Shown: positions 4,339 to 32,877, counted from the stretch's first letter. The stretch: 50,423 nt of DNA from Bacteroidia bacterium (GCA_013001815.1 JABDLV010000091.1:1-50423); one strand, 5' to 3'. Notes: a model not told the origin generated them from the letters alone. Numbers and translations are program-made.

Positions 4339-4396
4339 CGGTATTTAAACCAATTCCTGATAATTGCACTCAGGACCCTATGAAGTCATGAGGTTT

Positions 4397-6810: not shown

Positions 6811-7623
6811 TTACTTTTTCTTCAATTCACTAATTGCGCTCCGCACGCTACCGTAATTTAATAAATATTCTTTGGCCTTTTCTTCACTAATGTTCAATTC
6901 ATTCATCAACATTTTAACACCTCTATCAACTAATTTGTTGTTTGATAATTGCATGTCAACCATTTTGTTTCCTTTCACTCTGCCTAATTTTATCATGGCT
7001 GCAGATGATACCATGTTTAAAACCAGTTTTTGAGCAGTGCCGGATTTCATTCTTGTGCTTCCGGTCACAAATTCAGGCCCAACCACCACTTCAACAGGAA
7101 AATCAGAAACTTTAGAAATGGGAGCATTAGGATTGCAAGTGATACAACCGGTGGTAATGTTGTTTTTTTGACATAATTCCAAGGCGCCAACAACATATGG
7201 GGTAGTGCCACTGGCAGCCAATCCGATTACGATATCTTTTTCAGAAATATTTTCTTTTTGCAAATCATGCCAGCCCCCTAAAGGATCATCTTCTGCAAAC
7301 TCTACAGCTTTTCTTATTGCACTATCGCCACCGGCTATTAATCCAATGACTAAATCATGTTCTACGCCATAAGTAGGAGGGCATTCTGAAGCATCTACAA
7401 TTCCTAATCTTCCGCTTGTACCTGCACCTATGTAAAACAATCTGCCACCCGAATTTAGTTTTTCAAAAACGGCCTGAGCTAATTTGGTTATAGCGGGCAA
7501 TTCTTTTTCTACAGAAACTGCAACCGTTTTATCTTCTTTGTTGATGTTTTCAATCAGTTCGCCAACTTCCATTTTTTCAAGGTCATCGTAGTTGGATGAC
7601 TTTTCGGTGATGCGCGAACTCAT
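6811..7623 (-). CDS. murQ: N-acetylmuramic acid 6-phosphate etherase
   Basis: SIS-domain motifs RLFYIGAGTSGRLG, DASECPPTYG and GLAASGTTPYV are present. Length and N-terminus are typical of MurQ. Confidence 0.9.
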   Translation of the reverse strand: MSSRITEKSSNYDDLEKMEVGELIENINKEDKTVAVSVEKELPAITKLAQAVFEKLNSGGRLFYIGAGTSGRLGIVDASECPPTYGVEHDLVIGLIAGGDSAIRKAVEFAEDDPLGGWHDLQKENISEKDIVIGLAASGTTPYVVGALELCQKNNITTGCITCNPNAPISKVSDFPVEVVVGPEFVTGSTRMKSGTAQKLVLNMVSSAAMIKLGRVKGNKMVDMQLSNNKLVDRGVKMLMNELNISEEKAKEYLLNYGSVRSAISELKKK

Positions 7624-7626
7624 TTA

Positions 7627-10062
7627 TTAAGAATTAAAATTAGGAAATTGAGAAGGGTCACTCTGATTCATTAAGTTGTATGCTGCAATAGAAATGTCAT
7701 CAGCATTTGGTTTAGAAAAGTAATCACCATCAGAACCGTATGCCGGTCTATGTTCTTTTGATGTAATGCTAACAGGCATTTCATCAAGGTAATAATATCC
7801 TTTTTGCTCTTCCAATACTTTTTGCATCATATATGCTGTTCCGCCACCCGGCACATCTTCATCTAAAAATATTACACGACCGGTTTTCTTTATTGATTCA
7901 ACTATACTATGGTCTAAATCAAAAGGTAATAGTGATTGCACATCAATTAACTCAATAGAAATTCCCATTTCTGTAAGTTGCTTCATTGATTCTTGAGCTA
8001 CTTTCACGCAAGCACCATAAGTGACCATAGTAATGTCAGTCCCTTCCTGAATAATTTCAGGTGTACCTAGTTGAACAGAATATTGACCAATGTTTTTTGG
8101 CATTTTTTCTTTTATCCTATATCCATTCAATGGTTCTATTACCAACGCAGGTTCATCTGACTTTAATATGGTATTATAAAAGCCTGCAGCCTGAGTCATA
8201 TTTCTTGGCACTAATACATGCATTCCTCTTAATGCACCAAGTATCATTGCTATTGGTGAGCCTGAATGCCATATACCTTCTAATCTATGTCCTCTGGTAC
8301 TTACAATGAGTGGGGCTTTTTGTGCACCTTTTGTTCTATACTGAAGTGTAGCTAAGTCATCTGACAAAGGTTGTAATCCGTACAGTAAATAATCTAAGTA
8401 CTGTATTTCAGCAATGGGTCTTAAGCCACGCATTGCTAAACCTATTCCTTGTCCTATAATGGTAGCTTCTCTTATGCCTGTATCCGAAACACGCAGTTTG
8501 CCGAATTTTTCTTGCAAACCTGCATAGGTTTGGTTTACACCACCTATATGCCCAACATCTTCTCCGAATGCTAAAAATCCGGGATTATTTTTTAGATGAT
8601 ACTCAAAGTTTGCTTGCAATATCTCTCTGCCATCTACCATCTTACTATCATCAGCATATGCAACTGGTTCAGGTTTAAGTTTGGTGGCCGCCATTTCAGA
8701 TTCACTCATGTGATGTGAATCAAATCGATCATAATTTACTTCTTGCCAATTCTTATACCAAGTGCGTAAATTTTGAATGTCTTTGCCATTATCGTTTCGG
8801 GTAATTCGAAGTACTTTATTAACTGTTTCGGCAATGTCTCTTAATAAAGGTTCACGTACTGCACTAAAATCAGAAATAATTTTTTCTACAAACACTTTTT
8901 CCGCACTGGTGTTACCTGCAGCTTGCATCATGTTAATAGCAACTTCCAACTCGGTCTGAATCATTGTTGTGTATTCTTTCCAGGCCTCTGTTTTTGCTTG
9001 TTTTACTGTTTGCTTAGCAGTACTTTCTATTTCTTTTAATTCACTTTCTTCAGCTATTGCAGATTTTATGATCCACTCTTTGAACTTTGCGATGCAATCA
9101 TATTCAGTTTCCCAAGCTAAGCGGTCTTTTGATTTGTAACGCTCATGAGAACCAGAAGTAGAGTGGCCTTGCGGTTGAGTTAATTCTCTGATATGAAATA
9201 ATACAGGAGTATGGTTTTCTCTGCACTGCTTTATGCCTTCTTCATACATTTCACACATTTGTGCGTAGTCCCAACCATTAGCACGATAAATTAAATATCC
9301 ATCACTGTCATTTGTTTTTTCAAATCCCTTTAATACTTCAGATATGTTTTGCTTAGTAGTTTGATATTTTGCCGGAACAGATATGCCGTAACCATCATCC
9401 CAAACTGAAAGGGCAAGTGGTACTTGAAGTACCCCTGCCGCATTGATAGTTTCCCAAAACAAACCTTCAGAAGTACTGGCATCACCAATGGTGCCAAATG
9501 CAACTTCATTTCCTTTGTTAGAAAATTTGTCATATGGTCGATTATGCAATTGGCTGTTGTTTCTATATAGTTTAGAAGCATAGGCTAAGCCCAACAACCT
9601 TGGCATGTGCCCTGCCGTTGGAGAAATATCTGCTGAAGAATTTTTTAATTCTACTTGCTTGTTCCATTCCCCTTGATCATTAATTAATTTAGTTGCAAAG
9701 TGAGCATTCATCATTCTCCCAGCCGATGCAGGTTCTGCTTCAGGGTCTGGATGCGCATATAGTTGAGCAAAGAATTGTTTAATGGTAAGAAGACCACTTG
9801 CCATCATAAACGTTTGGTCTCTGTAATAACCTGCTCTAAAATCTCCGGGTTTAAAAACCTTGGCCAAAGCTAATTGTGCTACCTCTTTACCATCTCCAAA
9901 AATTCCAAATTTTGCTTTACCGGTTAATACTTCTTTTCGTCCAAGTAAACTGGTTTCTCTGCTCTCATTAACAATTCTATAATCATTCAATACAATATCT
10001 TTGAATTTATCAAAGGAGATATTTGATTTTGAAGTGTTTACATCTTTATTTGAAACGGCCAT
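7627..10062 (-). CDS. Fused alpha/beta E1 component of a 2-oxoacid dehydrogenase (TPP-dependent)
   Basis: The N-terminal half is E1-alpha-like (GTIGDASTSEG). The C-terminal half is E1-beta/transketolase-like (FGEDVGHIGGVNQ, RVSDTGIREATIIGQGIGLAMRGLRPIAEIQYLDY). Confidence 0.85.
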   Translation of the reverse strand: MAVSNKDVNTSKSNISFDKFKDIVLNDYRIVNESRETSLLGRKEVLTGKAKFGIFGDGKEVAQLALAKVFKPGDFRAGYYRDQTFMMASGLLTIKQFFAQLYAHPDPEAEPASAGRMMNAHFATKLINDQGEWNKQVELKNSSADISPTAGHMPRLLGLAYASKLYRNNSQLHNRPYDKFSNKGNEVAFGTIGDASTSEGLFWETINAAGVLQVPLALSVWDDGYGISVPAKYQTTKQNISEVLKGFEKTNDSDGYLIYRANGWDYAQMCEMYEEGIKQCRENHTPVLFHIRELTQPQGHSTSGSHERYKSKDRLAWETEYDCIAKFKEWIIKSAIAEESELKEIESTAKQTVKQAKTEAWKEYTTMIQTELEVAINMMQAAGNTSAEKVFVEKIISDFSAVREPLLRDIAETVNKVLRITRNDNGKDIQNLRTWYKNWQEVNYDRFDSHHMSESEMAATKLKPEPVAYADDSKMVDGREILQANFEYHLKNNPGFLAFGEDVGHIGGVNQTYAGLQEKFGKLRVSDTGIREATIIGQGIGLAMRGLRPIAEIQYLDYLLYGLQPLSDDLATLQYRTKGAQKAPLIVSTRGHRLEGIWHSGSPIAMILGALRGMHVLVPRNMTQAAGFYNTILKSDEPALVIEPLNGYRIKEKMPKNIGQYSVQLGTPEIIQEGTDITMVTYGACVKVAQESMKQLTEMGISIELIDVQSLLPFDLDHSIVESIKKTGRVIFLDEDVPGGGTAYMMQKVLEEQKGYYYLDEMPVSITSKEHRPAYGSDGDYFSKPNADDISIAAYNLMNQSDPSQFPNFNS

Positions 10063-18932: not shown

Positions 18933-19246
18933 AAGTATTTGCTTTATCTGGAGCTTTAGGGATTGAGGTTACTTTGGCCAGATGAAGAAGTGCTATATAT
19001 AATATAACGCATGGTTTAGTTTTTTTATTGGAAAAGTGGTAGACGAGTGCAAGTCACTACCTTATATATTATACGCTTTCGAAAGCTCTGGGGTTCCCGT
19101 ATATAAAGCTGAATGACATAAATTGCTAAATATCAATAGGATACAAGTTATATTGAATTCTTAAATGCGTTATTTTCTGCTAATTTTGCATGCTGTCAAA
19201 GACAGAATATTAATTTTTGTGTTTTGGCGAATGTCCAAAAATTGCA

Positions 19247-20692
19247 ATGGTATTTAGTTCACCCATATTTATTTTTCTATTCTTACCGCTTGTACTTTTA
19301 GTGTACTTTTTGCTGAAAGGAACAGCAAGAAAAAATCTGTGTTTACTTGTATTTAGTTTACTGTTTTATTTCTGGGGAGAAACCTATTTGGTATTACTGA
19401 TGTTGCTTTCCATTGGGTTAAATTATTTTTTCGGAATACAAATTGATAAGCAAAAAGACGGTAAAAGAAAAAAGCAGGTTTTATTAATGGGAGTTGCAAT
19501 TAATCTTCTAATATTAATTTCATTCAAGTATGCCAATTTTATAGTAGATAATTTAAATACAATTTTGGTGCAATTGAGTTTTTCACCAATTCATCTTAAA
19601 TCTATTCACTTACCCATAGGGATTTCATTCTTTACATTTCAAAGCATGTCATATATAATTGATGTGTATAGAAATACCAATAAAGTATCCAGAAGCCTTA
19701 CCAATGTGGCATTATATATCTCTCTATTTCCGCAATTAATTGCGGGGCCTATTGTTCGATATCATGATGTAGCGGGGCAAATTATTGATAGAAATATAAA
19801 AGTTGAATTATTTGCAGCCGGGGCAAAAAGATTTATAATTGGTTTAGCAAAAAAAGTTTTAATTGCTAACACGGTTGCACGGGTGGCAGATCATATTTTT
19901 GATTTGCCAATTGGAGAACATACTATTGCTGTAGCCTGGTTAGGTGCTGTTGCCTATTCATTGCAAATTTATTTTGATTTTTCCGGTTACTCTGATATGG
20001 CGATTGGATTAGGCAACATGTTTGGATTTAAATTTCCTGAAAATTTTAACTACCCATACATTTCTAAATCAATAAAAGAATTTTGGCGCAGATGGCACAT
20101 ATCATTGTCATCATGGTTTAGAGACTACTTATATATTCCACTGGGAGGAAACAGAATAAATGCAAGCAGAACTTATTTTAATCTGATAACCGTTTTCTTT
20201 TTAACCGGTTTGTGGCATGGAGCAAGCTGGAGCTTTGTGGTTTGGGGATTATATCATGGTTTCTTTTTAATCCTTGAAAGAATTGGCTTGGAACGTGCAT
20301 TAAACAAAGTTGGATTTTTTGTTGGCAATGCATATGCATTAGTAGTGGTGATAATTGGTTGGGTATTTTTCAGAGCAGATAACTTTCCATATGCCTGGAG
20401 CTATTTAAAAGCAATGTTTGGATTAGATAATCCGTCAAAAGAGAAATTCAATTTTGCTTATTACATGGATAATGAAATTGCATTAACACTAATTGCAGGT
20501 ATCGTTCTGTCCATGCCCTTATTTTTTAAATTAAAAACATTGAGAGCGAAATTGTTTAATGTTATTCCCGGTACTATATTTCAAATGAGTTTGAATGGCC
20601 TAATTACTGTGTTATACATTGTGTTATTCATTTGGTCTGTAATTTATATTTCAAGTGATACGTACAACCCATTTATTTATTTTAGATTTTAA
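19247..20692 (+). CDS. MBOAT-family membrane O-acyltransferase (AlgI/DltB-like), copy 1
   Basis: Motifs FFTFQSMSYIIDVY, FPQLIAGPIVR, RRWHISLSSWFRDYLYIPLGG and GLWHGASW. ATG 19247 (MVFSSPIFIFLF) is preferred over the TTG at 19217. Confidence 0.85.
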   Translation: MVFSSPIFIFLFLPLVLLVYFLLKGTARKNLCLLVFSLLFYFWGETYLVLLMLLSIGLNYFFGIQIDKQKDGKRKKQVLLMGVAINLLILISFKYANFIVDNLNTILVQLSFSPIHLKSIHLPIGISFFTFQSMSYIIDVYRNTNKVSRSLTNVALYISLFPQLIAGPIVRYHDVAGQIIDRNIKVELFAAGAKRFIIGLAKKVLIANTVARVADHIFDLPIGEHTIAVAWLGAVAYSLQIYFDFSGYSDMAIGLGNMFGFKFPENFNYPYISKSIKEFWRRWHISLSSWFRDYLYIPLGGNRINASRTYFNLITVFFLTGLWHGASWSFVVWGLYHGFFLILERIGLERALNKVGFFVGNAYALVVVIIGWVFFRADNFPYAWSYLKAMFGLDNPSKEKFNFAYYMDNEIALTLIAGIVLSMPLFFKLKTLRAKLFNVIPGTIFQMSLNGLITVLYIVLFIWSVIYISSDTYNPFIYFRF

Positions 20693-21834
20693 TGATGAAT
20701 GTAAAGAACATATTGACTTATGCTTTCGTGGTGCTCTTTATTGCAGTTCTCCTTATCCCCTTGTTGCGTTCATTTAGTTCAGTTAATGATAGCACTGCTT
20801 GGATGGAAAAAAGAGAAGTTGCTGAGTTTCCTTCGTTACAATTCAACAAACTGGATAAATTCCCAAAGCAGTTCAACGCATTTTTTAATGATCATCTAGG
20901 CTTTAGAAAGTATATCATGCTGGCGAATGGCATCATTAAAAATGACTTATTCAATGTAAGTAGTAGACCTGATAAGGTAATTAAGGGAAAAGATGGTTGG
21001 TTGTATTTGGCACGAGACGATTTTAATGAAGATTATTATATGAACGTGAATCCTTTCACAGAAAATAATTTGAATGCAGTTTGTGAAGAGATACAAAGGA
21101 GAAAAGACATTTTAGCTGAACTAAATATAGAATACTATCTGTTTATGCTACCAAGTAAACATCACGTATACCCTGAAAATTTACCCGATAATATTAATCA
21201 ACTTGATACCATAAGTAGATTGGATCAATTTATGAATCACATGCAAAGCGATTACAATGTGAATGTGATAAATACTCTAGATACCGTAATTCAAACGAAA
21301 TCAGATACAGCCTATTTTTATGATAAGGATACCCATTGGAATTTACATGGTGCAGCATTCGTTTACACAGTTATGATGGATGAGTTGAAAAAGAGATATT
21401 CCGATTTGAATATTCTGAACTGTATGAGTTGGGAAAGAAAAACTACTGTAATTGAACATCAAGGGGATTTGTCTTTATTAATGGGCAGGTACGATTATAA
21501 AATGAAGAATAATGTGGTAACTGTTCCTCCGTCAGATTTTAAAGTGAATTATGAAAGTGTTGCAGTTGGAGAACTTCCTGAAAAAGATAAATTCTTGGCA
21601 GCACCAGAGCGGTTTGTGTCCAATGATTCGCTCGCACCAAAAGTTGTGGTGATGCATGATTCTTTTGCTACATTGCTAAAGAAATTTATGGCAACGGGTT
21701 TTTCAGAATCATTGTTTGTATGGACACACGAGTTTACACCGGAAATTATTGAACAAGAGAAACCTCAAATAGTAATTGAACTGATGGCCGAACGATTTTT
21801 AACTCAATTGCAAGAAAAAGAAATAGAAAAATAA
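20692..21834 (+). CDS. AlgJ/AlgX-like SGNH-type periplasmic O-acyltransferase partner (N-terminal TM anchor), copy 1
   Basis: Motifs EFP...FNAFFNDHLGFR, KDGWLYL, LPSKHHVYPENLP and DKDTHWNLHGA, then VVVMHDSF...IVIELMAERF near the C-terminus. The start overlaps the MBOAT stop (TAATG). Confidence 0.65.
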   Translation: MMNVKNILTYAFVVLFIAVLLIPLLRSFSSVNDSTAWMEKREVAEFPSLQFNKLDKFPKQFNAFFNDHLGFRKYIMLANGIIKNDLFNVSSRPDKVIKGKDGWLYLARDDFNEDYYMNVNPFTENNLNAVCEEIQRRKDILAELNIEYYLFMLPSKHHVYPENLPDNINQLDTISRLDQFMNHMQSDYNVNVINTLDTVIQTKSDTAYFYDKDTHWNLHGAAFVYTVMMDELKKRYSDLNILNCMSWERKTTVIEHQGDLSLLMGRYDYKMKNNVVTVPPSDFKVNYESVAVGELPEKDKFLAAPERFVSNDSLAPKVVVMHDSFATLLKKFMATGFSESLFVWTHEFTPEIIEQEKPQIVIELMAERFLTQLQEKEIEK

Positions 21835-21835
21835 C

Positions 21836-23287
21836 ATGCTCTTTAATTCATTTGAGTTTTTTATTTTTTTTCCAATTGTAATTTGGATTTATTTCATTAC
21901 TCCTTCAAAGTATAGGTGGGTATGGCTGTTATCTGTCAGCTACTATTTTTATATGTGCTGGAAGTCTGCCTACATTATATTGATAGCCACATCAACATTG
22001 GTAGATTACTTCGCAGGAATCTATATTCATCAATCGAAAACAAAAAGTAGGCGAAAGCTGCTTTTGTACTTGAGTCTATTTGTAAACCTTGGTTTATTAT
22101 TTGTTTTTAAGTATTTAGATTTCTTTAATGATACCATTGGTTCTGTATTTAATCAGTTCAATATATTTTATGATGTGCCAGCGTATAATTTTTTATTACC
22201 CGTTGGGATATCATTCTACACATTTCAAACTTTAAGTTATACCATTGATGTATATAAAGGCAGAATAGAACCTGAAAGACATTTAGGACGTTTTGCTTTA
22301 TATGTTTCATTTTTCCCGCAGTTGGTAGCTGGTCCAATTGAGCGAGCAACAAGATTATTACCTCAATTTAAAAAGGTGCATACATTCGATTACAATAGAG
22401 TGAAAAATGGCTTGCTCTTAATTTTGTGGGGACTGTTTAAAAAAGTGGTAATAGCAGATAGGGTTTCGGAATATGTAAATACGGTGTATAATAATCCGGG
22501 AATGTATTCAGGTTTGCAAAGTATTCTTGCAACCTACTTTTTTGCCTTTCAGATCTACTGTGACTTCTCCGGGTATTCTGACATTGCCATTGGAGCTGCA
22601 TTGGTATTGGGTTATGAGTTAATTGTAAATTTTAAACGTCCCTATTTTTCAAGAACATTTAAAGAAGTATTCAATCGCTGGCATATTTCACTTTACAATT
22701 GGTTTAGAGATTACGTATATGTTCCACTAGGGCTCAAGTTTCGGTCTAAATTTTTTAGACAGGCAATATTAGTATTGGTGTTTTTACTTACCGGTTTATG
22801 GCATGGTGCAGAATGGACATTTGTTTTGTGGGGTGGATTGTGTGCCCTCATTATTGTACTTGGAACGCTCACACAAAAATTAAGAAATAATTTATTTGAT
22901 AGAGCAGGAATTAAACGCAGTAATAAATTTAGAATTATATATGATGTAGTCATTACATTCCATTTTTGCTTTTTAGTATTCATCATGTTTAGAGCACAAT
23001 CCGTATCTCATTTTGTAGATATGGTTGCAAGTATGTTTCATATTGATTTTGCATCTCAATTCACAAACATAAATTTATTCTTAGTGCCGGCAGATATGGC
23101 AATTGGTGTGGTGAGTATTTTGTTTCTATTAGGAATTGAATTATTGCAGGAGAAATATGGTTCTAAGAAACTATTTTATTCCATGGTGCCAAGATGGGGT
23201 AGGTGGACATTTGTAGGAATGATTATAATGAGCATTATACTATTTGGAAAATTTGATAATGTTGACTTTTTATATTTTCAATTTTAG
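21836..23287 (+). CDS. MBOAT-family membrane O-acyltransferase, copy 2
   Basis: Motifs MLFNSFEFFIFF, FYTFQTLSYTIDVY, FPQLVAGPIER, NRWHISLYNWFRDYVYVPLG and GLWHGAEW. It starts 1 nt after the upstream stop. Confidence 0.85.
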   Translation: MLFNSFEFFIFFPIVIWIYFITPSKYRWVWLLSVSYYFYMCWKSAYIILIATSTLVDYFAGIYIHQSKTKSRRKLLLYLSLFVNLGLLFVFKYLDFFNDTIGSVFNQFNIFYDVPAYNFLLPVGISFYTFQTLSYTIDVYKGRIEPERHLGRFALYVSFFPQLVAGPIERATRLLPQFKKVHTFDYNRVKNGLLLILWGLFKKVVIADRVSEYVNTVYNNPGMYSGLQSILATYFFAFQIYCDFSGYSDIAIGAALVLGYELIVNFKRPYFSRTFKEVFNRWHISLYNWFRDYVYVPLGLKFRSKFFRQAILVLVFLLTGLWHGAEWTFVLWGGLCALIIVLGTLTQKLRNNLFDRAGIKRSNKFRIIYDVVITFHFCFLVFIMFRAQSVSHFVDMVASMFHIDFASQFTNINLFLVPADMAIGVVSILFLLGIELLQEKYGSKKLFYSMVPRWGRWTFVGMIIMSIILFGKFDNVDFLYFQF

Positions 23288-23289
23288 TG

Positions 23290-24315
23290 ATGAAGGAAAA
23301 AGGACTTAAATATGGAATATATGCTGCAGGTGTTGCTTGCTTGCTGATATTTGTATTGGTGCGTTTAACAAATGTTCCTGCATCGCTGGTTGTAGACTTA
23401 GACAATACAGGTGATTTGTACAGGCAGAACTATATTGATTTGTTTAAAGAGGAATTGCCAGCAAAATCCATTGCGTTTAATCAGTCACCTAAACACGCCT
23501 CTATAGATGACGCAGAGATATTAATTTTTGGTGATTCATTCTTTAATTTTAGAAGGCATAAGTCGGTGCCGGAGTATGTTGCAGACAGTTTAAATAAAAA
23601 AGTATTTTTTCACAAGGACTATAGTGTAAAGGATGTGCTTGCGGGTGCTAATTTTGATGGAGATAATAAAAAGCTGTTGATTTTTGAATTAGCCGAAAGA
23701 GGTATTACCATAAAATTTGGGCCTGATATAGTTGAATCTAAAAAGTTTGAGTTTGATTTGTTTACGCAATTGGATACAACCTTCTTTTCAGAAAAATATA
23801 ATAAGCGTTATCGATATTTATTGGAAAGAAGTAAACTGTCACACAACGTTTATTCCTCTTTAAATACTTTTAATTTTAATGCGTTTAAAAGCATTAGCAG
23901 CTTCACTCCCGTGTATACAAAAGAACCGGCTTGTCTGTTTTATGGTAAGACAGTGAATAATAAACCCGGGAGTTATAATTTTAATTATTCGCCTGCACTT
24001 ATAAATTTTTATTCTGATAATATATTGGATTGGAAGAATGAAATAGAACAAAAGTATAATGTAGAAGTACTGTTTTATTTCATTCCTAATAAGTCTTCTG
24101 TTTATCACGAGAAAATTAGCAATGAAGGGTACAATAATTTTCTTCCTAGGTTAAGCACTGCGCTTAATGCAAGAGGGGTGAAGCACATAAGCATGTATGA
24201 AGAGTTTGAGGCTGCTGAAGAAATATTATACTACCCTACAGATACTCATTGGAATGATGCCGGAACTAAAATGGGAGCAGAAAAACTTATTAAATATTTA
24301 AGAACGAATAATTAG
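23290..24315 (+). CDS. SGNH/DHHW-type O-acyltransferase partner, copy 2 (motif order permuted relative to copy 1)
   Basis: N-terminal TM anchor. ILIFGDSF...LLIFELAERG lies near the N-terminus, followed by FYFIPNKSSVYHE and YYPTDTHWNDAG near the C-terminus. The start is ATG 23290 (or GTG 23287, which overlaps the MBOAT stop). Confidence 0.55.
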   Translation: MKEKGLKYGIYAAGVACLLIFVLVRLTNVPASLVVDLDNTGDLYRQNYIDLFKEELPAKSIAFNQSPKHASIDDAEILIFGDSFFNFRRHKSVPEYVADSLNKKVFFHKDYSVKDVLAGANFDGDNKKLLIFELAERGITIKFGPDIVESKKFEFDLFTQLDTTFFSEKYNKRYRYLLERSKLSHNVYSSLNTFNFNAFKSISSFTPVYTKEPACLFYGKTVNNKPGSYNFNYSPALINFYSDNILDWKNEIEQKYNVEVLFYFIPNKSSVYHEKISNEGYNNFLPRLSTALNARGVKHISMYEEFEAAEEILYYPTDTHWNDAGTKMGAEKLIKYLRTNN

Positions 24316-26198
24316 ACTCGTATATCAAAGTGAGTCGACATCAAGGTTAAATTAGGACTGTAAGACGGGTCGTGTTCAATGTATTTTTTCCAATGCTCTT
24401 TAAAATATTTCACAGCATGTAAGTGTTTTTTATGGGACTCTTCACTTGCATGTGGATTCCCTCTTGACAAAGACTCATAGTGATACAATTCTACATTAGG
24501 CAGATAAACATTTCTGTATCCAGCTTCTAGTACTCGCAAACAGAAATCTACATCATTAAATTCAACCGGTAATTTTTCTTCAAAACCATTAACCTGCTCA
24601 AATTTTTCTTTTTTTATCATTAAACAAGCTGCGGTAACTGCACTATAGTTGTTAATGGACTTAATCGCATAAAAATATCCATCATCATTTGCTTCTTTTC
24701 CAATAAAGGTATGTCCGGCAATACCGCCAAGCCCTATTACTGTTCCGGAGTGCTGTATGGTGCCATTTGGATATAGTAATTTTGCACCCACTGCACCAAT
24801 ATCCTTTAGCTGGGCAAACTCAAGCATGTTTTGAATCCAGTTAGGTGTAATAACCTCCATGTCATTATTCAATAGCAGCACAAAATCACCACTGCTTCTC
24901 TTTACACCAACATTCATTAGCGTAGAAAAATTAAACTCTATGGAAAGTCGAATGGCCTGAAACCTATCATTTAAGTTTGACTTGTATTGATCTGTTAGCT
25001 TATGAAATGATTCTTCTGTGCTGTCATTGTCAATTACGATTATTTCATAATTCTTGTAAGTGCTTTTTTCTATGATTGAATCAATGCATTTTTTTAGTAC
25101 CTCAGCTTCGTTTTTTGATGGGATTATAATACTGACCTTGTAATTTTCTTTTAATTCAGGATGTACTTCATAATAGCCCGGCATTCCTTCTTGCAATGCA
25201 ACGGTTCCATTAATTCCTCTTCGCTGAAGTGCTTCTGTTAATGCTTTTACGCCTGCTTCATAAGCATAGGGCTTTGCCGCATCGCTGTCTGTGCTAGAAT
25301 CATTGTGTATACGCCAATGATAAAGCACTTTGGGTATGTGTTTAATATTCTGAGTTCTTTCTGTAAAGCGCAAAAGTAAATCGTAATCCTGACTGCCTTC
25401 AAAACCCGTGCGCATTCCACTTAGTTCGTTCAGTATAGATTTTCTAAACACACTGAGGTGAGTGATGTAATTTCTGGCTAAAAAACTTTCCGGGCTCCAG
25501 TCAGGTTTAAAATACGGATTGCCCGTATTTCCTCTTGCATCTACAAAGTCTTCATCCGAATAAATCAAATCGTGTGTTTGATCAGCATTTAGTTCTTTTA
25601 CAATTTCATATAAAGCTTCCGGTGCAAGCAAGTCATCATGGTCTAAAAATGCAACAAATTCACCGCTTGCAAGTTCTATGGCATCATTAGTGTTCGCAGA
25701 GATATGTCCATTTTCACTTCTGAAATTCAGCTTCACTTTACTATTGCTTGCTTTGATTTGCTTTAGGTATTCAATTACTCCCGGAATGGTAGAATAATCG
25801 TCAGAAATACAAAGTTCCCAGTTCTCATATATCTGATTGAATACAGAATCACAACATTGTTCTAAAAATTTGAGGTTACTGTTATAAACCGGCAATACAA
25901 TGCTTATTAATGGCTGATACTTGAAATTAGGTATGAGTTTTTTATATTCTTTTAAATCAGATGCAGTGGGGGAGTTGAATCGTTTCCATTCTTTGTATCC
26001 GCTGCTATCAAATAAATTAATACCCAGCGTTTTTCTAACTACATAGCGCGCTGTTTTATGAAGCATTCTGCTCCCTCTTTCATAAGCCTTTTTTTTAAAT
26101 AAAAAAGAAACAACTCTTCTTGGAGTAACATCTTTCATATCAACCGGAGTTTTTGAAAGTGTTAATTCAGAAATTGCTTTTTGAATGAGTCTTTTCAT
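24312..26198 (-). CDS. Bifunctional glycosyltransferase with two GT2 domains
   Basis: Two GT-A modules are present: ISIVLPVYNS...FLDHDD and VSIIIPSKNE...IIVIDNDST...LLLNNDME. Confidence 0.85.
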   Translation of the reverse strand: MKRLIQKAISELTLSKTPVDMKDVTPRRVVSFLFKKKAYERGSRMLHKTARYVVRKTLGINLFDSSGYKEWKRFNSPTASDLKEYKKLIPNFKYQPLISIVLPVYNSNLKFLEQCCDSVFNQIYENWELCISDDYSTIPGVIEYLKQIKASNSKVKLNFRSENGHISANTNDAIELASGEFVAFLDHDDLLAPEALYEIVKELNADQTHDLIYSDEDFVDARGNTGNPYFKPDWSPESFLARNYITHLSVFRKSILNELSGMRTGFEGSQDYDLLLRFTERTQNIKHIPKVLYHWRIHNDSSTDSDAAKPYAYEAGVKALTEALQRRGINGTVALQEGMPGYYEVHPELKENYKVSIIIPSKNEAEVLKKCIDSIIEKSTYKNYEIIVIDNDSTEESFHKLTDQYKSNLNDRFQAIRLSIEFNFSTLMNVGVKRSSGDFVLLLNNDMEVITPNWIQNMLEFAQLKDIGAVGAKLLYPNGTIQHSGTVIGLGGIAGHTFIGKEANDDGYFYAIKSINNYSAVTAACLMIKKEKFEQVNGFEEKLPVEFNDVDFCLRVLEAGYRNVYLPNVELYHYESLSRGNPHASEESHKKHLHAVKYFKEHWKKYIEHDPSYSPNLTLMSTHFDIRV

Positions 26199-26213: not shown

Positions 26214-27836
26214 CTATTTAGAAAAAAGATTAGCAATTTTTTTAATCGTGCTATTATTTTTGATTGCTTTAAGTGCAGGTATATTTTGATATTTGCTCAG
26301 GTTCGTAGTAAGTTGATCAATTATGCCTTGTCTTTCAATGCACAGGCTTTCTAATTCGGCATAATTTTTTACCATTTTCGGTATTAGTTGCTCTATGTTT
26401 GATTTATACAATTCAATATGCTTTCTGCATACATAAGAAACTATTTTTTCTCTGTTCTCCGGTTTGTTGCTATTGGTAACCATTGATTGATCTTTTACCC
26501 GATAATCAAATAGAAATTTATCAATATGATGAAATTTCCAACCATGTTTATGAAGGTTAATCCAGGTTTCCCAATCTTCATAACCCAATTTCATGCTTTC
26601 ATCAAATCCACCTATTTGGTCAAGGGCTTCTTTTCTAACAACGGTGCAGGCATCAATATAGTTTTGATTTAGAAGTTCGGTGATTTCAAAATCTTTTACG
26701 GTTCTCATGAGAGAATGCTCACCAAAGAACCTTGGGTTGGCATAAACCACTGCAGTTTTATCATCCCTCTCCATTATTTCAATCGCCTCTAAAATATATC
26801 TTGTGTCCGCCTTATTATCAGCATCTAGAAATAGTATGTACTTACCCTTGCTAGCTTTTATTCCTGAATTTCGAGCATTGGATAAGCCTCCATTGATTTG
26901 ATTAATAACCTGAATATTACTTTCATTTATACTATCCAGTATTTCAATCGTAGTGCTATCTGTAGATCCATCATTTACAATGATAATATCATCAATAGTA
27001 TTTGTACTTGTTCTTAAGGCATAAAGTGCCTCATCTAAATAATGACCTTGATTATAACAAGGTATAATAACCGAAATTAAATTACTTAATGCAGTAGTTG
27101 ACTTCGCATCAAATTTCAATGCACTCATATTATGCAATGACTCTAATAGTTCTTTGTTTTTACTTTCTGAGAAAAATTCATTTCTCAACTTTGGTATATA
27201 CTCTCTTGAAATAGGTTCAGGTGTATAAAAAGAATAATCGCGGGCTTTTTGTCTATCTAATTTGTACCCCCATTTCTGGTGCAACAATTCTGCAACTTTA
27301 TACGGCTCTTGAATAAATGCATTGCTGCTTATCAATATTGATTTTTCCGAATTGGATTTAGCAAATTCAAGTATGTGTGAGTTGTACCAATTCCATATGT
27401 CATATACATACTGAGGGTTTTGCTCAATGATGGAATTGCCCGATTGAATTAGCGCCTGCTTTACTTCCCATGGATTTTGATACACTAATATAAAGTTGGC
27501 ATTTGGTAGGAGTGTTGAATAAAAATCAAGTGTAATTGCAGAATTTGGACTATGCCATGCTAAATTATTGGGTTGATGTGTGAATAGACTCTTTCCTACT
27601 GAGTGGAAACTTTCAATCTTTGCATAATTGAATTTTAGATCCTCGGTATATCCCCAGTCCGGTATTCCTTTGTGTCCACCTTTGCAGGCAGACCTATTTA
27701 TTTTGGTTTGAAAACTGTTAAGCGCTTTTTCAGAATTGACATCAAAATGAAATCCTGCAGATTGCAAGTATCTGGAAATTGCATCAGTGCCCGAACCATG
27801 CATACCTGTGATTATAAGTGGAGCATTAGTTGGCAT
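26214..27836 (-). CDS. Fusion protein: N-terminal sulfotransferase-like P-loop domain + C-terminal GT2 glycosyltransferase
   Basis: N-terminal LIITGMHGSGTDAISRYL is 5'-PSB-like and ILVYQNPWEVKQAL is 3'-PB-like but degenerate. The C-terminal half has ISVIIPCYNQGHYLDEAL, IIIVNDGSTD and LFLDADN. The GT2 half is secure; the sulfotransferase call is tentative. Confidence 0.6.
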   Translation of the reverse strand: MPTNAPLIITGMHGSGTDAISRYLQSAGFHFDVNSEKALNSFQTKINRSACKGGHKGIPDWGYTEDLKFNYAKIESFHSVGKSLFTHQPNNLAWHSPNSAITLDFYSTLLPNANFILVYQNPWEVKQALIQSGNSIIEQNPQYVYDIWNWYNSHILEFAKSNSEKSILISSNAFIQEPYKVAELLHQKWGYKLDRQKARDYSFYTPEPISREYIPKLRNEFFSESKNKELLESLHNMSALKFDAKSTTALSNLISVIIPCYNQGHYLDEALYALRTSTNTIDDIIIVNDGSTDSTTIEILDSINESNIQVINQINGGLSNARNSGIKASKGKYILFLDADNKADTRYILEAIEIMERDDKTAVVYANPRFFGEHSLMRTVKDFEITELLNQNYIDACTVVRKEALDQIGGFDESMKLGYEDWETWINLHKHGWKFHHIDKFLFDYRVKDQSMVTNSNKPENREKIVSYVCRKHIELYKSNIEQLIPKMVKNYAELESLCIERQGIIDQLTTNLSKYQNIPALKAIKNNSTIKKIANLFSK

Positions 27837-28599
27837 GTACTTTCGTTTTGTTTACCGGAAATAGGTTTTCGTAAAAAGAAATTACTTCATCAATTTGGCC
27901 CACCTTAACCACTTTGCCATCTTGCAAACAAGCTGCTTTATTGCAAATTCTACGTAATTCATCTGTACTATGCGTTACATATACAATGGTGCTTCCTTGT
28001 TTTCTTATTTCGTCTATTCGTTTAGCACATTTTTCTCTAAATCCTCTGTCCCCTACGGAAAGCGCCTCATCAACAATGAGAACCTCGGGTGTATTAGCCA
28101 CGGCAATACTAAAAGCAAGTCTCGACATCATGCCAGTAGAGTATCTTTTTACCTGCATGTTTATTGACTGTTCATTCAGTTCCGAAAAGGCAATAATATT
28201 TTTTAATGATTCTTCATACTCATCTTTTGTATACCCAATGAGTGTGCAAAGAAGTTTTATGTTTTCCAAGCCGCTTAGTTCCGGTTCTAATCCCACGCCT
28301 AATGCAAGCATTGGTGCAACCTTCCCTCTTACGGTTATTTCGCCACTATCTTGTTCTATAATTCCGGCAACAGCTCTTAGTAAAGTGCTCTTTCCAGATC
28401 CGTTTTTGCCAATCAAGCCAAAACAATCTCCTTTTTCAATTTGCAGATTAATATCATGAAGCACTTTTTTCTTTTCAAATAGTTTTTTCATGCCTAAACT
28501 CAAGAGCCATTGCTTCACAGAATTAATGCCGTAGCTCTGTACTAAAAAGCTAAAGTTTAAATTCTTTATATCAATAATTATTTCGTTGTTCTCTTGCAT
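27826..28599 (-). CDS. Polysaccharide-export ABC transporter ATP-binding protein (Wzt/TagH/KpsT-like, short form)
   Basis: Walker A GKNGSGKST, signature YSTGMMSRL and Walker B VLIVDEAL. The protein is 257 aa, with no C-terminal carbohydrate-binding extension. Confidence 0.85.
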   Translation of the reverse strand: MQENNEIIIDIKNLNFSFLVQSYGINSVKQWLLSLGMKKLFEKKKVLHDINLQIEKGDCFGLIGKNGSGKSTLLRAVAGIIEQDSGEITVRGKVAPMLALGVGLEPELSGLENIKLLCTLIGYTKDEYEESLKNIIAFSELNEQSINMQVKRYSTGMMSRLAFSIAVANTPEVLIVDEALSVGDRGFREKCAKRIDEIRKQGSTIVYVTHSTDELRRICNKAACLQDGKVVKVGQIDEVISFYENLFPVNKTKVHAN

Positions 28600-28600
28600 T

Positions 28601-29392
28601 TTAATAATAAGATATAAATCCTGCTCTAAATTTTTTATACGTTCTCATTCCTATGATTACCACTATCAAACTTAGTACTGTAGCTATTATTGCCGAGTTT
28701 AGCTCTGGCAATTCATTGTAATACAATACAGATTTTATCATCGTAAAATAATGATACAGTGGATTTAATTTTAATAGATATATGTATTGTGGTGGTATTA
28801 GCTGAAATGAATAAACAATGGGTGTAAAATAAAATAGGGCGGGTATTAATGAGGTCCAAAGCATTTCTACATCCCTAAAAAACACATTAAGAGTAGCAAG
28901 CGTTAAAGACACACCAAATAAAAACAAACACAGCAATGCAATAATGGGAAATATTAATAGATTCACCCATGAAAAAGTAAATCCTAACAATACCATAATG
29001 ATCATAAACGGCACCAATGAAAGCAAGAAGATAATCAATCCGGAAATGAGTGTAGATATTGGAAAGATTAAAGGAGATATGTTCATTGATTTTAGTATTC
29101 CCTTATTGGAAGTGATAGAGGTAAGCATTTGATTCGATGTAGTACTGAAGAACACCCAAAATATTAAACCTGTTAATGCAAACAGCGGGTAATTTTTAAT
29201 GTCGGGGAATACATTGCTAAAAACGATAGAGAATACAATCAAATAAATCAATGGATTAATCATGCTCCAAAAAATTCCGAGAAAAGAATTTTTGTACCGC
29301 ACTTTTACATCCTTCACGGCAACAGCAAGAACTAAATTGAAATTGCTTTTAATTTTAGCTGTTTTATGGCTTTTGTCGGCTGTAATACTCAT
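28601..29392 (-). CDS. ABC-2 type polysaccharide-export permease (Wzm/TagG-like)
   Basis: About 6 TM helices. It lies immediately upstream of the ATPase gene (1-nt gap) and has typical ABC-2 length and topology. Confidence 0.8.
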   Translation of the reverse strand: MSITADKSHKTAKIKSNFNLVLAVAVKDVKVRYKNSFLGIFWSMINPLIYLIVFSIVFSNVFPDIKNYPLFALTGLIFWVFFSTTSNQMLTSITSNKGILKSMNISPLIFPISTLISGLIIFLLSLVPFMIIMVLLGFTFSWVNLLIFPIIALLCLFLFGVSLTLATLNVFFRDVEMLWTSLIPALFYFTPIVYSFQLIPPQYIYLLKLNPLYHYFTMIKSVLYYNELPELNSAIIATVLSLIVVIIGMRTYKKFRAGFISYY

Positions 29393-29489: not shown

Positions 29490-30407
29490 TTGGAAAACCC
29501 GAAGGTATATATAATAATAGTCCATTTTGGCCAGGTAAGCGACACGGTGGCCTGCGTAGAATCTGTTTTAAAGCAGAATGCGAATTACGAGAAAATTGTA
29601 ATTGTCAATAATAGTGAGAATGAGGTTGATTGGAAAAAGCAGCTGAATGATCAATCTGGAAAATTGGAATTTATTATAACTGAAGCAAATAATGGATATG
29701 CATTTGCATGCAATACGGGTATGCAATTTGTGAGCAAAAATTACAATCCGGATTACTACTGGATATTGAATAATGATACGGAAGTGGATGAAGTCAGTTT
29801 AAAAACATTGTTGAATTGTGCTTCTGATAAAATAAACACTGGATTAATCGGGTCTAAAATATATCACATCAATAAAAGAAATGTATTGCAAGGTGTAGCC
29901 GGTGCATATAATAAAGTGCTGTGCGTAACCAAACATGTTGGTAAAGGAGAAACAGATAATGGTCAATTTGACGAGGGTAAATTTTCATTTGATTACCCCT
30001 TAGGTGTTTCGCTTTTTGTGCGAAAAGCATTTGTTGATGAAGTAGGAATGATGAGTGATGACTACTTTATTTATTTTGAAGAATTGGATTGGGCTTATCG
30101 CGCAAAGAAAACGAAGTGGGATGTGGGCATTTGCACCGCATCAAAGATTTATCATAAGGGAGGGGCCAGCACTGGAGCAATGAAAGAAAACAGAAATGCT
30201 AAATCTGCATTGTCTGATTTTCATGCAATAAGAAGTAGGGTTTTGTTTACGAACAAATACTTGAAAATGTATAAGCCATTTTTGTACCTGTTTTTGGGTA
30301 TTCTTTTTTTTGAAATGTTATTAAGGGGCAAAGCGCACCGAATAAAAATGATTTTTCGCTTATTAAAAAATCCAGAATTAAATTACGTTGAAGGGGAGTA
30401 TAGGTAA
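29490..30407 (+). CDS. GT2-family glycosyltransferase (rhamnosyltransferase-like)
   Basis: Motifs VYIIIVHFGQ, IVIVNNSENE and WILNNDTEV. There is an in-frame stop at 29478-29480 and no ATG before residue ~78, so the start must be TTG at 29490. Confidence 0.8.
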   Translation: MENPKVYIIIVHFGQVSDTVACVESVLKQNANYEKIVIVNNSENEVDWKKQLNDQSGKLEFIITEANNGYAFACNTGMQFVSKNYNPDYYWILNNDTEVDEVSLKTLLNCASDKINTGLIGSKIYHINKRNVLQGVAGAYNKVLCVTKHVGKGETDNGQFDEGKFSFDYPLGVSLFVRKAFVDEVGMMSDDYFIYFEELDWAYRAKKTKWDVGICTASKIYHKGGASTGAMKENRNAKSALSDFHAIRSRVLFTNKYLKMYKPFLYLFLGILFFEMLLRGKAHRIKMIFRLLKNPELNYVEGEYR

Positions 30408-30500: not shown

Positions 30501-31640
30501 TTGAAAGTTGCATTTGTACATGATTGGTTCTCTAAAGTTGGGGGTTCTGAAAAAGTAGCCAGAGAAATCATAAGTCTATATCCCGAATGTGATGTTTTTA
30601 CACTTGTAAATTTTTTAGAGGGAAAAGAAAAGGTAGACATTTTGCAAGGACATGATCCCAAAGTGTCATTCATTCAAAAACTACCAAGAGCTAAGGATAA
30701 GCATCAGTACTACTTGCCAATTTTTCCATACGCAATAGAGAAGTTTGATTTATCGGAATATGATTTAATCCTTTCTTCTTCACACGCAGTTTCTAAGGGC
30801 GTTTTAACAAACGCAAATCAAATACATGTTTGTTACTGCCATACACCAATGCGATATGCATGGGATTTGTATCATCAATATTTAAAACTAACCGGATTAA
30901 ACACGGGAATAAAATCTTTATTCGTAAAGCACACTTTAAATCGATTGCGAAATTGGGATCAACTTAGTTCACAACGAGTAGATTACTTTGTGGCTAACTC
31001 GTATTACGTTGGCAAAAGAATTAAAAAGAACTACGGAAGAGATTCGCATGTAATATACCCACCGGTTGATATTGATAAATTTAATTTACAGGAAGAGAAG
31101 AAGGACTACTACATGACTATGTCCAGAATGGTTCCTTACAAACGTATGGATTTAGTGGTAGAAGCTTTTTCTAAGATGCCGGATAAAAAGTTAATTGTGA
31201 TAGGTGATGGCCCTGATTTCAAAAAAATACAAAACCTCACCAAAGGATGTGATAATATTACCATGTTGGGCTATCAGCCAAATGAAACAGTGAAGAAATA
31301 CATGGAAGGCGCGAAAGCCTTTGTGTTTGCTGCGGATGAAGATTTCGGAATAACATCTATTGAAGCACAAGCCTGTGGAACTCCTGTGATTACTTATGGT
31401 AAGGGAGGATCTTTAGAAACTGTTATCAATAATAAAACGGGCAGGTATTTTAAAGAGCAAACCGTTGAAGAAATAGTGGATGCCGTTAGAGGTTTTGAAA
31501 AAGAAGGAATTGAATTTACTCCAGCTCAAATTAGAGAGCATGCTACCAATTTTGATCGTCATCGTTTTCGATACTTGTTTAAAGAGTATGTAGATGAAGT
31601 AACTCAGAAACATGAAGTCGGAAGCGTTCAACAAGCTTAA
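30501..31640 (+). CDS. GT4-family (GT-B) glycosyltransferase
   Basis: The N-terminus MKVAFVHDWFSKVGGSEKV is typical, and the E-x7-E region is EDFGITSIEAQACGTPVI. There is an in-frame stop at 30450-30452 and no upstream ATG, which implies a TTG start at 30501. Confidence 0.85.
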   Translation: MKVAFVHDWFSKVGGSEKVAREIISLYPECDVFTLVNFLEGKEKVDILQGHDPKVSFIQKLPRAKDKHQYYLPIFPYAIEKFDLSEYDLILSSSHAVSKGVLTNANQIHVCYCHTPMRYAWDLYHQYLKLTGLNTGIKSLFVKHTLNRLRNWDQLSSQRVDYFVANSYYVGKRIKKNYGRDSHVIYPPVDIDKFNLQEEKKDYYMTMSRMVPYKRMDLVVEAFSKMPDKKLIVIGDGPDFKKIQNLTKGCDNITMLGYQPNETVKKYMEGAKAFVFAADEDFGITSIEAQACGTPVITYGKGGSLETVINNKTGRYFKEQTVEEIVDAVRGFEKEGIEFTPAQIREHATNFDRHRFRYLFKEYVDEVTQKHEVGSVQQA

Positions 31641-32877
31641 TCAGATACAATATTATTCCTTGCTAGTTTTGGCAGCATTCCCAATGATGCCAAAGAAGAT
31701 TCAGTCTATAGCAATCATTGCTTTTGTGGTAATCAGTTTTATTGGAGTAATTCAACTCAACAAAGAACTATTTAAACGAAAATTAAAATGGATTCTGTTG
31801 TTTTCATCCATTTCATTGATTTACGGAGCTCTTATATTCTTTTCTGATGATACTTCCTCGGCAGTATTTCAAACAGAAAAGCGATTAAGTCTACTGGTAA
31901 TACCTTTTGCCTTTTTATTCTGGAATTGGAAGTTGGATGTAAAGCAGTTAAATGCAATTAAAACTGTATTTGTTGCTTCTTGCTTCTTAGTGGTTCTTCG
32001 ATTACTTGGAATATTGATTTATGCAGACTTCTTTCAAGAGGCCTGGAATCATCCTAACTTTTCTTTTATGATGCGTAATGCTGCAGAGAGCATTACGGGT
32101 TTTCATCCATCCTATTTAGCGCTTTATCTTTCTTTCTCTATATGCATACTATTGCTTTGGCTTTTGTTTCCGAAACAACAATTTAAAAAGCATACAAAAG
32201 GAATGATGGTCATTGGTATTTTAGTGTTCGTAATACTAATTTGGCTATTGGCTGCACGAATGCCCTTATTAGGCTTGTTTATTGCATTATTAACGATGGC
32301 GTTTTGGAAAGCGGCTAACATTAAAAAGTTTGCCCTAGTAACTGTTGTATTAATGGCAGTGTTGTTTGCAGCTGTATTCTTTTCTCCTTCTTTAAAACAA
32401 AGAAGCATGCAATTATTTAACAGTGGATTTAATATGCCTGCCGATGAAGATTTTAATGATACGAATGTGAGGTTGGCAATTTATACTTGCTCGCTTAAGC
32501 TATTAAAAGAAAACTGGTATAGCGGTTACCAACCGGGTGATGTGTATCAACACTTGAATGAATGTTATGAAAGTACTTTTAAATCTGATAAGCTAAGAGA
32601 GAAAAATTTTAACACACATAATGAGTACTTCAATATTTGGTTAGGTTGTGGTATTATTGGCTTTGCATTATTTTTAATGATGTTATTCTTGCCATTGAAG
32701 ATGGCATTGCGTGCAGATGAGAAACTATATGTGTTGTTTTTAATTTTATTTATGGTGAGCTGTCTTACGGAAAATGTATTATCCAGACAACATGGAATGG
32801 TGTTTTATGCAATACTAAATTCAATGCTATTTTTCAATAGAGTATTGCCAGCTAGTTATTCATCACGTACTCAATAA
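31612..32877 (+). CDS. O-antigen ligase/polymerase-family (Wzy_C-type) integral membrane protein
   Basis: At least 10 hydrophobic helices, a periplasmic-loop region, and the motif THNEYFNIWLGCGIIGF. The start may be a later Met (31684). Confidence 0.7.
   Translation: MKSEAFNKLNQIQYYSLLVLAAFPMMPKKIQSIAIIAFVVISFIGVIQLNKELFKRKLKWILLFSSISLIYGALIFFSDDTSSAVFQTEKRLSLLVIPFAFLFWNWKLDVKQLNAIKTVFVASCFLVVLRLLGILIYADFFQEAWNHPNFSFMMRNAAESITGFHPSYLALYLSFSICILLLWLLFPKQQFKKHTKGMMVIGILVFVILIWLLAARMPLLGLFIALLTMAFWKAANIKKFALVTVVLMAVLFAAVFFSPSLKQRSMQLFNSGFNMPADEDFNDTNVRLAIYTCSLKLLKENWYSGYQPGDVYQHLNECYESTFKSDKLREKNFNTHNEYFNIWLGCGIIGFALFLMMLFLPLKMALRADEKLYVLFLILFMVSCLTENVLSRQHGMVFYAILNSMLFFNRVLPASYSSRTQ

Follow-up and report, generated by a model that had tools for sequence, protein, structure and literature searches.

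Two MBOAT-SGNH acyltransferase modules with partners of opposite catalytic-block order, in tandem beside an ABC-transporter glycan locus of a Bacteroidia bacterium

The DNA analyzed here, called "the window" in the following, is a stretch of 50,423 nucleotides from a Bacteroidia bacterium (GCA_013001815.1, JABDLV010000091.1:1-50423). Between positions 19247 and 24315 it contains four tightly packed genes, coding in order for a membrane-bound O-acyltransferase (MBOAT1), a putative periplasmic SGNH-like protein (partner1), a second MBOAT (MBOAT2) and a second SGNH-like protein (partner2). The interpretation we lean towards, with moderate confidence, is that they provide two complete and independent acyl relays, probably for acetyl groups, acting at two acceptor positions of one glycan exported by the neighbouring Wzm/Wzt transporter. 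It builds on the order of the genes, their intact motifs for catalysis and shuttling, the fold classes of the partners, cassette behaviour and synteny, all of which are direct observations; among two acyl groups, two positions and two polymers, it is two positions, on a single glycan, that the context favours. The four-gene order is a real arrangement and not a chance pattern, and the same four genes are present in an independent public gene call on the identical contig (Bacteroidia metagenome-assembled genome, MAG, GCA_013043795.1). The genes and their motifs are located as follows.

19247-20692, plus strand: MBOAT1, 481 aa, ATG start; a TTG upstream, at 19217, is an alternative start
20090-20107, plus strand: RWHISL of MBOAT1 (within RRWHISL), with catalytic H284
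20213-20221, plus strand: WHG of MBOAT1 (within GLWHG), with H324
20672-20689, plus strand: C-terminal acyl-shuttle motif FIYFRF of MBOAT1, its last six residues, with Y478
20692-21834, plus strand: partner1, 380 aa, open reading frame (ORF) read from the window sequence
21328-21339, plus strand: DTHW of partner1 (D213, H215, W216)
21658-21663, plus strand: catalytic Asp-Ser of partner1 (D323, S324)
21836-23287, plus strand: MBOAT2, 483 aa, ORF read from the window sequence
22676-22693, plus strand: RWHISL of MBOAT2 (within NRWHISL), with catalytic H283
22799-22807, plus strand: WHG of MBOAT2 (within GLWHG), with H323
23267-23284, plus strand: C-terminal acyl-shuttle motif FLYFQF of MBOAT2, its last six residues, with Y480
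23290-24315, plus strand: partner2, 341 aa, ATG start; a GTG at 23287 is an alternative start
23530-23541, plus strand: GDSF of partner2 (G81, D82, S83, F84)
24241-24252, plus strand: DTHW of partner2 (D318, H320, W321)

Both MBOATs match the Pfam family MBOAT (PF03062; cut-off 27 bits), MBOAT1 with 105.1 bits (E 6e-30) and MBOAT2 with 93.4 bits (E 2e-26). Their catalytic histidines align with the nrWHmSL block of DltB, the sole solved homologue for both, and each protein ends, at its extreme C-terminus, in an exact FXYXXF hexapeptide, a motif defined in PMC12148441. In the auto-acetylated PatA, the Tyr of this C-terminal motif accepts acetyl from acetyl-CoA, in a His-dependent reaction, before it is passed to the SGNH partner PatB; the authors argue that the Tyr-shuttle mechanism holds for all non-Dlt MBOAT-SGNH systems (PMC12148441). 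Among 80 related MBOATs, the (R/K)WH(I/M)SL block is present in 76 and the terminal FXYXXF motif in 78. When the two proteins are aligned with these 80, 97 columns are near-invariant (each at least 95% conserved): MBOAT2 keeps 91 of them and MBOAT1 83, including H284, H324 and Y478, in an alignment dominated by the MBOAT2 clade, from whose consensus MBOAT1 departs at the other 14 (e.g. E170V, D208N). The deviations of MBOAT1 are shared by its orthologues in two of the loci surveyed below, L086 and L089, as is the case for the NTYNPFIYFRF-type terminus. MBOAT1 and MBOAT2 are 35% identical over 406 residues and fall into different clades, MBOAT2 grouping with the MBOATs that precede partner2-type genes elsewhere. 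From their sequences both look active, and neither looks degenerate. A recent duplication is ruled out, because MBOAT identity is 35% and the partners belong to different classes.

The two partners match the same Pfam family, ALGX (PF16822): partner1 with E 4e-22, above the gathering score, and partner2 with E 2e-9 (37.8 bits, cut-off 26.5), the latter match being limited to residues 247-339 and profile positions 34-132. Neither of them matches the Pfam families of PatB (DUF459) or DltD (PF04914) at E <= 0.1. Both feature N-terminal transmembrane (TM) helices and invariant Ser, Asp and His residues; alignable only near DTHW, they are about 20% identical there. In partner1, D213-x-H215-W216 followed by D323-S324 is invariant across 14 sequences: the DxH(W) block lies upstream of the catalytic Ser, in the permuted H-S-G-N block order which, together with a DxH block V, defines AlgX, AlgJ and PatB1 (PMC9487903). 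The AlphaFold2 model of partner1 is of moderate quality (pLDDT 79); its top Foldseek matches in the PDB are PatB1 (5v8d, 1.8e-11), AlgJ (4o8v, 9e-11), a DHHW protein (4nzk, 2e-9) and AlgX (4knc, 3e-7). Motif order and model together indicate that partner1 is an N-terminally membrane-anchored, permuted SGNH-like acyltransferase of the AlgX/AlgJ/PatB1 type.

The catalytic blocks of partner2 come in the opposite order. GDSF (81-84) precedes DTHW (318-321), invariantly across 23 sequences, and the permuted order is not found. For its AlphaFold2 model (pLDDT 88), canonical GDSL/SGNH proteins, DltD (6pfx) and the C-terminal domain of OatA give the best PDB folds, DltD being a weak match (E 1e-3, TM score 0.34); AlgX and PatB1 are not matched, and a PDB sequence search with partner2 yielded no meaningful match. 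When the two partners are compared by hhalign, residues 82-234 of partner1 pair with 194-339 of partner2 (99%, E 7e-18), and residues 258-372 with 41-141 (78%, E 2e-5). The two hits lie in swapped order, and the partners are therefore seen as homologues related by circular permutation. The partner2 family also carries AlgX-like signatures in Ser-first order (PxK, DxHW, GDL, DS, ER). As judged from alignments and model, partner2 is homologous to the AlgX/AlgJ/DHHW family but no member of it in the permuted sense. An exhaustive profile search groups its relatives, at E <= 1e-30, into at least 225 clusters at 50% identity; among the best 150 of these, the majority are full-length matches. None of 42 partner2 relatives from a word-based search bears a functional name, and no description of such a non-permuted AlgX-like family was found in the literature searched, whose coverage was limited.

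By direct reading of the sequence, MBOAT1 and partner1 are joined by TAATG (20690-20694), partner1 and MBOAT2 are separated by one C (21835), between TAA and ATG, and the MBOAT2/partner2 junction is TAGTGATG (23285-23292). The overlapping junctions would allow translational coupling and leave no space for internal terminators; nothing beyond that is read from them, so that the co-translation which the initial annotation called almost certain is no more than possible. No terminators were predicted at the junctions by a promoter/terminator scan, which is uninformative for Bacteroidota; the same holds for its sigma-70 part, in which promoter-like sites were fewer than in shuffled sequence. One candidate element is located upstream of the first gene:

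19181-19188, plus strand: TAATTTTG, a candidate -7 promoter element of Bacteroidota type, 59 nt 5' of the MBOAT1 ATG

The 315-nt intergenic region upstream of MBOAT1 has no other TAnnTTTG match; the evidence is weak, since the background is 0.6 such matches per kb. The four genes and three junctions given in the initial annotation agree exactly, in coordinates and sequence, with those reported here. Its description of the MBOATs as non-degenerate, on account of the RRWHISL, NRWHISL and GLWHG blocks, is extended by the shuttle Tyr and by the 83 and 91 conserved columns, and its view of them as clearly diverged, rather than recently duplicated, is borne out by their identity and separate clades. 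The terminal hexapeptides and the opposite block order of the partners had not been described in it.

The frequency of such modules was evaluated in 80 genome loci containing partner2 relatives, mostly from MAGs of Bacteroidales, Cytophagales and Ignavibacteria, and in 80 metagenome loci containing partner1 relatives, fetched out of more than 514 found; partner1 loci were searched with a 6-sequence alignment, the 14-sequence one being too diverse. In 71 of the 80 genome loci an MBOAT2-clade gene lies directly upstream of the partner2-type gene, and partner1-type genes are directly preceded by an MBOAT in essentially all metagenome loci with sufficient upstream sequence. Each MBOAT-partner pair is a portable cassette, usually found alone, and MBOAT doubling is uncommon: within the fetched +/-10 kb, a second MBOAT is present in 7 out of 121 surveyed loci, i.e. 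in 6 of 74 partner2-seeded cassettes (L014, L025, L032, L038, L053, L075) and in one of 47 partner1-seeded ones (L086). These counts are lower bounds, as many loci have short flanks. The arrangement is, at any rate, not ubiquitous, a possibility that the initial annotation had named as speaking against its relevance. Tight MBOAT-SGNH-MBOAT-SGNH tandems are found in four loci, all from uncultured Bacteroidota: L014 (6075-11098), L025 (2900-7883), L075 (4428-9583) and L086. Duplication of the partner after a single MBOAT, as for AlgJ/AlgX, is commoner in the surveyed loci than duplication of the MBOAT; in L045, L050, L079, L091, L103, L111, L129, L145 and L154, two or three partners of the same class lie after a single MBOAT or flank it.

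Three of the four tandems share a different composition. Compared with the syntenic single-cassette locus L166 (8541-11077), L014, L025 and L075 look as if a unit, made of another partner (X) and an MBOAT, had been inserted between MBOAT2 and partner2. The X partners, 320-340 aa long, contain a TM segment at the N-terminus, a G(G/S)S block and, at the C-terminus, HLNKKG, which aligns weakly with block V of partner2. They have no Pfam match, and their profile gave no meaningful match against PDB sequences; their motifs and a weak hhalign hit (68%) hint at an SGNH nature, the DUF1574 hit described below concerning the L086 protein only. In three other loci (L021, 6528-11131; L041, 6621-11143; L038, 2176-11128) a glycosyltransferase of family 2 (GT2) and a YdjC-like gene stand between the MBOAT2-clade gene and partner2; in L038 an FkbH_N-like protein, which may hint at a non-acetyl donor, is encoded between the two MBOATs. 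Stand-alone partner2 cassettes on long contigs lie in polysaccharide loci in two out of three cases. In two Bacteroidales polysaccharide loci, large He_PIG/Laminin_G/GDSL-lipase proteins, sorted by the type IX secretion system (T9SS), are encoded immediately 5' of the partner2 cassette (L166, 3819-8510; L168, 978-5879).

Both modules of the window are kept in a relative from run ERR12037365, whose locus is split across two contigs. Its genes code, in order, for HutH (77% identity), a trypsin-like protease (72%), MBOAT1 (73%), partner1 (60%) and an S-adenosylmethionine (SAM) methyltransferase, then for MBOAT2 (84% in an N-terminal fragment, 73% in a C-terminal fragment retaining FLYFQF), partner2 (58%) and a tandem GT2-GT2 glycosyltransferase (71%). 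Since this relative, about 60-80% identical, has retained both, they have been maintained over substantial divergence. In its contig L082, with the 73% identical MBOAT1 orthologue, the SAM-dependent methyltransferase (249 aa, 4629-5378) is inserted exactly between partner1 and MBOAT2, both pairs being intact; the insertion point confirms the module boundary, and the inserted gene suggests a third decoration. More distant loci differ in their modules. L089 contains module 1 only, with an MBOAT1-type protein (48%) and a partner1-type protein (29%), and the C-terminus NSTYNPFIYFRF; this cassette lies beside orthologous GT2-GT2, Wzt and Wzm genes. In L086 an overlapping four-gene tandem flanks orthologous glycan genes (GT2-GT2 52%, Wzt 62%, Wzm 44%, GT4 52%), with the modules in the order opposite to that of the window: an MBOAT 43% identical to MBOAT2, a Ser-first SGNH-like protein, the MBOAT1 orthologue (49%) and a partner1-type protein. 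The Ser-first partner (7066-7983; IIGSSRS ... DNGHLNANG) has a sub-threshold match to DUF1574 (26.8 bits, cut-off 29.1), an SGNH-superfamily family of no known function. Module 1 is thus found by itself in L089, with a different second module in L086, and with module 2 in the window lineage. Read most simply, these gene orders make module 1 the native module of this type of locus, a different second module having been added independently in two lineages; module 2 appears to be a portable cassette, added later.

The glycan locus adjoining the modules in the window comprises the following genes.

24312-26198, minus strand: tandem GT2-GT2 glycosyltransferase, 628 aa (two Glycos_transf_2 matches in Pfam, E 1e-49)
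26214-27836, minus strand: GT2 protein, 540 aa (Pfam GT2, E 1e-28)
27826-28599, minus strand: Wzt-like ABC transporter ATPase (Pfam ABC_tran, E 2e-21)
28601-29392, minus strand: Wzm-like ABC-2 permease (Pfam ABC2_membrane, E 2e-16)
29490-30407, plus strand: GT2 glycosyltransferase, divergent from the transporter genes (Pfam Glycos_transf_2, E 1e-9)
30501-31640, plus strand: glycosyltransferase of family 4, GT4 (Pfam Glycos_transf_1, E 4e-30)
31612-32877, plus strand: Wzy_C/O-antigen-ligase-like membrane protein (Pfam Wzy_C, E 8e-16)

Partner2 and GT2-GT2 are convergent and overlap by 4 nt at their 3' ends, their stop codons lying within TTAG (24312-24315). In L084, L085 and L086 the corresponding gap is of just 2-6 nt, a spacing which therefore leaves no room for terminators. 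The link between acyl modules and glycan genes is conserved: orthologues are 68-85% identical in L084 and L085 and about 50% in L086 and L089. In particular, GT2-GT2 orthologues adjoin acyl modules in L084 and L085 (68-71%), in L086 and in L089 (52% in both); Wzt orthologues reach 80-81% in L084/L085, and that of GT4 85% in L084. For the 540-aa GT2 protein, the N-terminal region of the L084 and L085 orthologues matches Sulfotransfer_3 (PF13469), and the window glycan may be sulfated or capped. The domain scan of the window covered ORFs of at least 150 aa; among these, no carrier-protein (PP-binding) or adenylation (AMP-binding) domain was found, and the cluster is without free intergenic space. 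No esterase gene, such as an Ape O-acetylesterase, flanks the cluster in the Pfam scan. Elsewhere in the window, two adjacent Omp28-family paralogues (3314-5305, minus strand), a SulP-family sulfate permease (41185-42783, 13 kb from the 540-aa GT2 protein) and a T9SS C-terminal sorting domain, which fits Bacteroidota, are encoded.

According to the proposed mechanism, the four genes would be transcribed together. Each MBOAT would draw its acyl group (most likely acetyl, supplied by acetyl-CoA) from a donor in the cytoplasm and, by its conserved His, transfer it, at the periplasmic face, to the Tyr of the FXYXXF peptide at its own C-terminus. From there it would pass to the catalytic Ser of the anchored partner encoded downstream (Ser324 in partner1, Ser83 in partner2), which would esterify a sugar hydroxyl. 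The likely acceptor of both relays is the polymer made by the adjoining glycosyltransferases; as it would be exported by Wzm/Wzt, acylation would follow export. Since the substrate-binding domains of the partners are very different, the two relays would most likely act at different positions or residues of the glycan.

Some observations weigh against this proposal. The acyl modules lie on the strand opposite to most of the glycan genes; gene neighbourhood is what points to the likely acceptor, and no sequence signal sets acetyl apart from other short acyl groups. That each MBOAT works with the partner downstream is inferred from adjacency; in L014, L025 and L075 the MBOAT adjoining partner2 is outside the MBOAT2 clade, the MBOAT2-clade gene being the upstream one, and adjacency is therefore no sure marker of a working pair. 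Finally, the stand-alone partner2 cassette of L167 lies outside any glycan locus, so that module 2 may not need the neighbouring polymer. This last point bears on a first alternative, which we regard as unlikely, that module 1 acts on the neighbouring Wzm/Wzt glycan while module 2, merely co-located, acts on another envelope polymer (a polysaccharide, lipopolysaccharide core or peptidoglycan). Besides L167, it is in keeping with the many unrelated contexts of the MBOAT2-partner2 cassette, with the lack of window-type glycan genes at most partner2-seeded loci and with the Ser-first order of partner2, known also from DltD, PatB and the C-terminal domain of OatA, whose substrates are non-capsular wall polymers. 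Yet module 2 is wedged between module 1 and GT2-GT2, with junctions of 0-2 nt, an arrangement kept in the relative at about 60-80% identity; partner2 is without the Pfam matches expected of PatB or DltD, and most other examined partner2 cassettes are inside polysaccharide loci.

It is improbable that the MBOATs select different acyl-CoA donors (e.g. acetyl and a longer or substituted group) for the same glycan. The divergence of the MBOATs into different clades, the 14 departures of MBOAT1 from the MBOAT2-clade consensus, E170V and D208N included, and the FkbH_N-like protein of L038, hinting at non-acetyl donors in some clusters, would suit such a difference; no donor-specificity signal is seen in the sequence, however, no donor-synthesis, carrier-protein or ligase gene is found near the cluster among the scanned ORFs, and acetyl is the group transferred by every characterised non-Dlt system of the MBOAT-SGNH type that the consulted papers name (PMC12148441). 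Slightly more improbable still is a redundant or cooperative single relay, where both modules feed the same modification, like AlgJ with AlgX or PatA1 with PatA2. Alginate acetylation does use two SGNH-like proteins successively (PMC9487903), the B. anthracis patA1 patA2 double mutant is reported to show a strong loss of wall-polysaccharide acetylation (PMC7759979), and among the surveyed loci a single MBOAT is commonly followed by duplicated partners; in the window, on the other hand, each MBOAT comes with a full shuttle motif and a partner of its own, these partners belong to different topological classes and can barely be aligned, and each pair stands alone as a cassette in dozens of other genomes. 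That one module is a decaying or pseudo-enzyme copy is hardly credible, and was excluded: no catalytic or shuttle residue is lost from either MBOAT or either partner, and the four genes are intact and 58-84% conserved in the relative whose flanking housekeeping HutH is at 77%. Nothing was found in favour of it; the greater consensus deviation of MBOAT1 was measured on an alignment dominated by the other clade, and is shared by the L086 and L089 orthologues. Two positions on one glycan remains the reading we prefer.

MBOAT doubling is not new in principle, because PatA1/PatB1 and PatA2/PatB2 are documented in Bacillus anthracis/cereus. Accordingly, the statement of the initial annotation that characterised systems use one MBOAT per polymer is not supported in this form: these two MBOATs and two partners act on wall polymers, and acetylation of the secondary cell wall polysaccharide is lost in the patA1 patA2 double mutant (reviews PMC7759979, PMC6110886). 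Like the window, this system has a pair of MBOATs and a pair of periplasmic-type partners within a single organism, for wall glycans, and its PatB1 is the best structural match of partner1; it differs in belonging to a Gram-positive S-layer locus, whose layout is known here from reviews, whereas in the window the partners are opposite in topological class and the four genes abut or overlap one another. The PatA/PatB system of Campylobacter jejuni and Neisseria gonorrhoeae is the mechanistic template, with its catalytic-His MBOAT, terminal FXYXXF shuttle and anchored periplasmic SGNH transferase (PMC12148441). Unlike it, the window features partners outside DUF459, an ABC-transporter glycan context instead of a peptidoglycan/Ape cluster, and two modules instead of one; a PatA/PatB peptidoglycan system was excluded, as partner family and context are both wrong for it.

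The Pseudomonas alginate system (AlgI/AlgJ/AlgF/AlgX) also associates an MBOAT with AlgX-family SGNH-like proteins featuring a DxH block V, and partner1 shares its permuted H-S-G-N order. In contrast to it, the window has no AlgF, a single partner for each MBOAT and a non-permuted partner2, and its polymer is ABC-transporter-dependent, while alginate is synthase-dependent. DltB/DltD/DltX/DltC/DltA resembles the window in its MBOAT, Ser-first SGNH protein and tyrosine acyl shuttle, but here the shuttle peptide is fused to the MBOAT, with no separate DltX, and no carrier protein or ligase is found among the scanned ORFs; Dlt-type D-alanylation was excluded on these grounds. The MBOATs score 171 and 157 bits against NCBIfam DltB (TIGR04091), far under the 375-bit cut-off; an NCBIfam Dps hit was discarded as spurious. 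WssH/WssI and CcsH/CcsI, for cellulose acetylation, are likewise cassettes of an MBOAT and an AlgJ-like partner in a polysaccharide operon (PMC12148441), but single modules tied to a cellulose synthase, while the window locus lacks any synthase. On tandem MBOATs of Bacteroidota, nothing relevant was found in the literature searched, of limited coverage.

The machinery is therefore of the known MBOAT-SGNH type. What is new is that a permuted and a non-permuted AlgX-like partner are combined in a single overlapping operon, the association of this combination with an ABC-transporter glycan locus of Bacteroidota, the uncharacterised partner2 family and, apparently, the independent acquisition of second modules. 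A broader proposal can be made only tentatively: the partner2 family would be an undescribed class of MBOAT partners, the unpermuted, ancestral Ser-first counterpart of AlgX/AlgJ/PatB1, and this type of glycan locus would have gained a second, different relay at least twice independently, in the window lineage and in L086. If true, this would mean that selection favours an O-acyl pattern with two sites on a single surface glycan.

Bacteria esterify extracytoplasmic polymers mainly by way of MBOAT-SGNH relays, and recognition by phages, by antibodies and by enzymes of the lysozyme type is influenced by O-acyl patterns. The mechanistic picture is left unchanged by the arrangement described here; it is extended to Bacteroidota ABC-transporter glycans, with one partner class added. 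As two structurally different relays would act on what is probably one substrate, the locus would offer a natural system for the study of regiospecificity and of recognition between shuttle peptide and partner, and the partner2 family a comparison point for the origin of the circular permutation in AlgX, AlgJ and PatB1.

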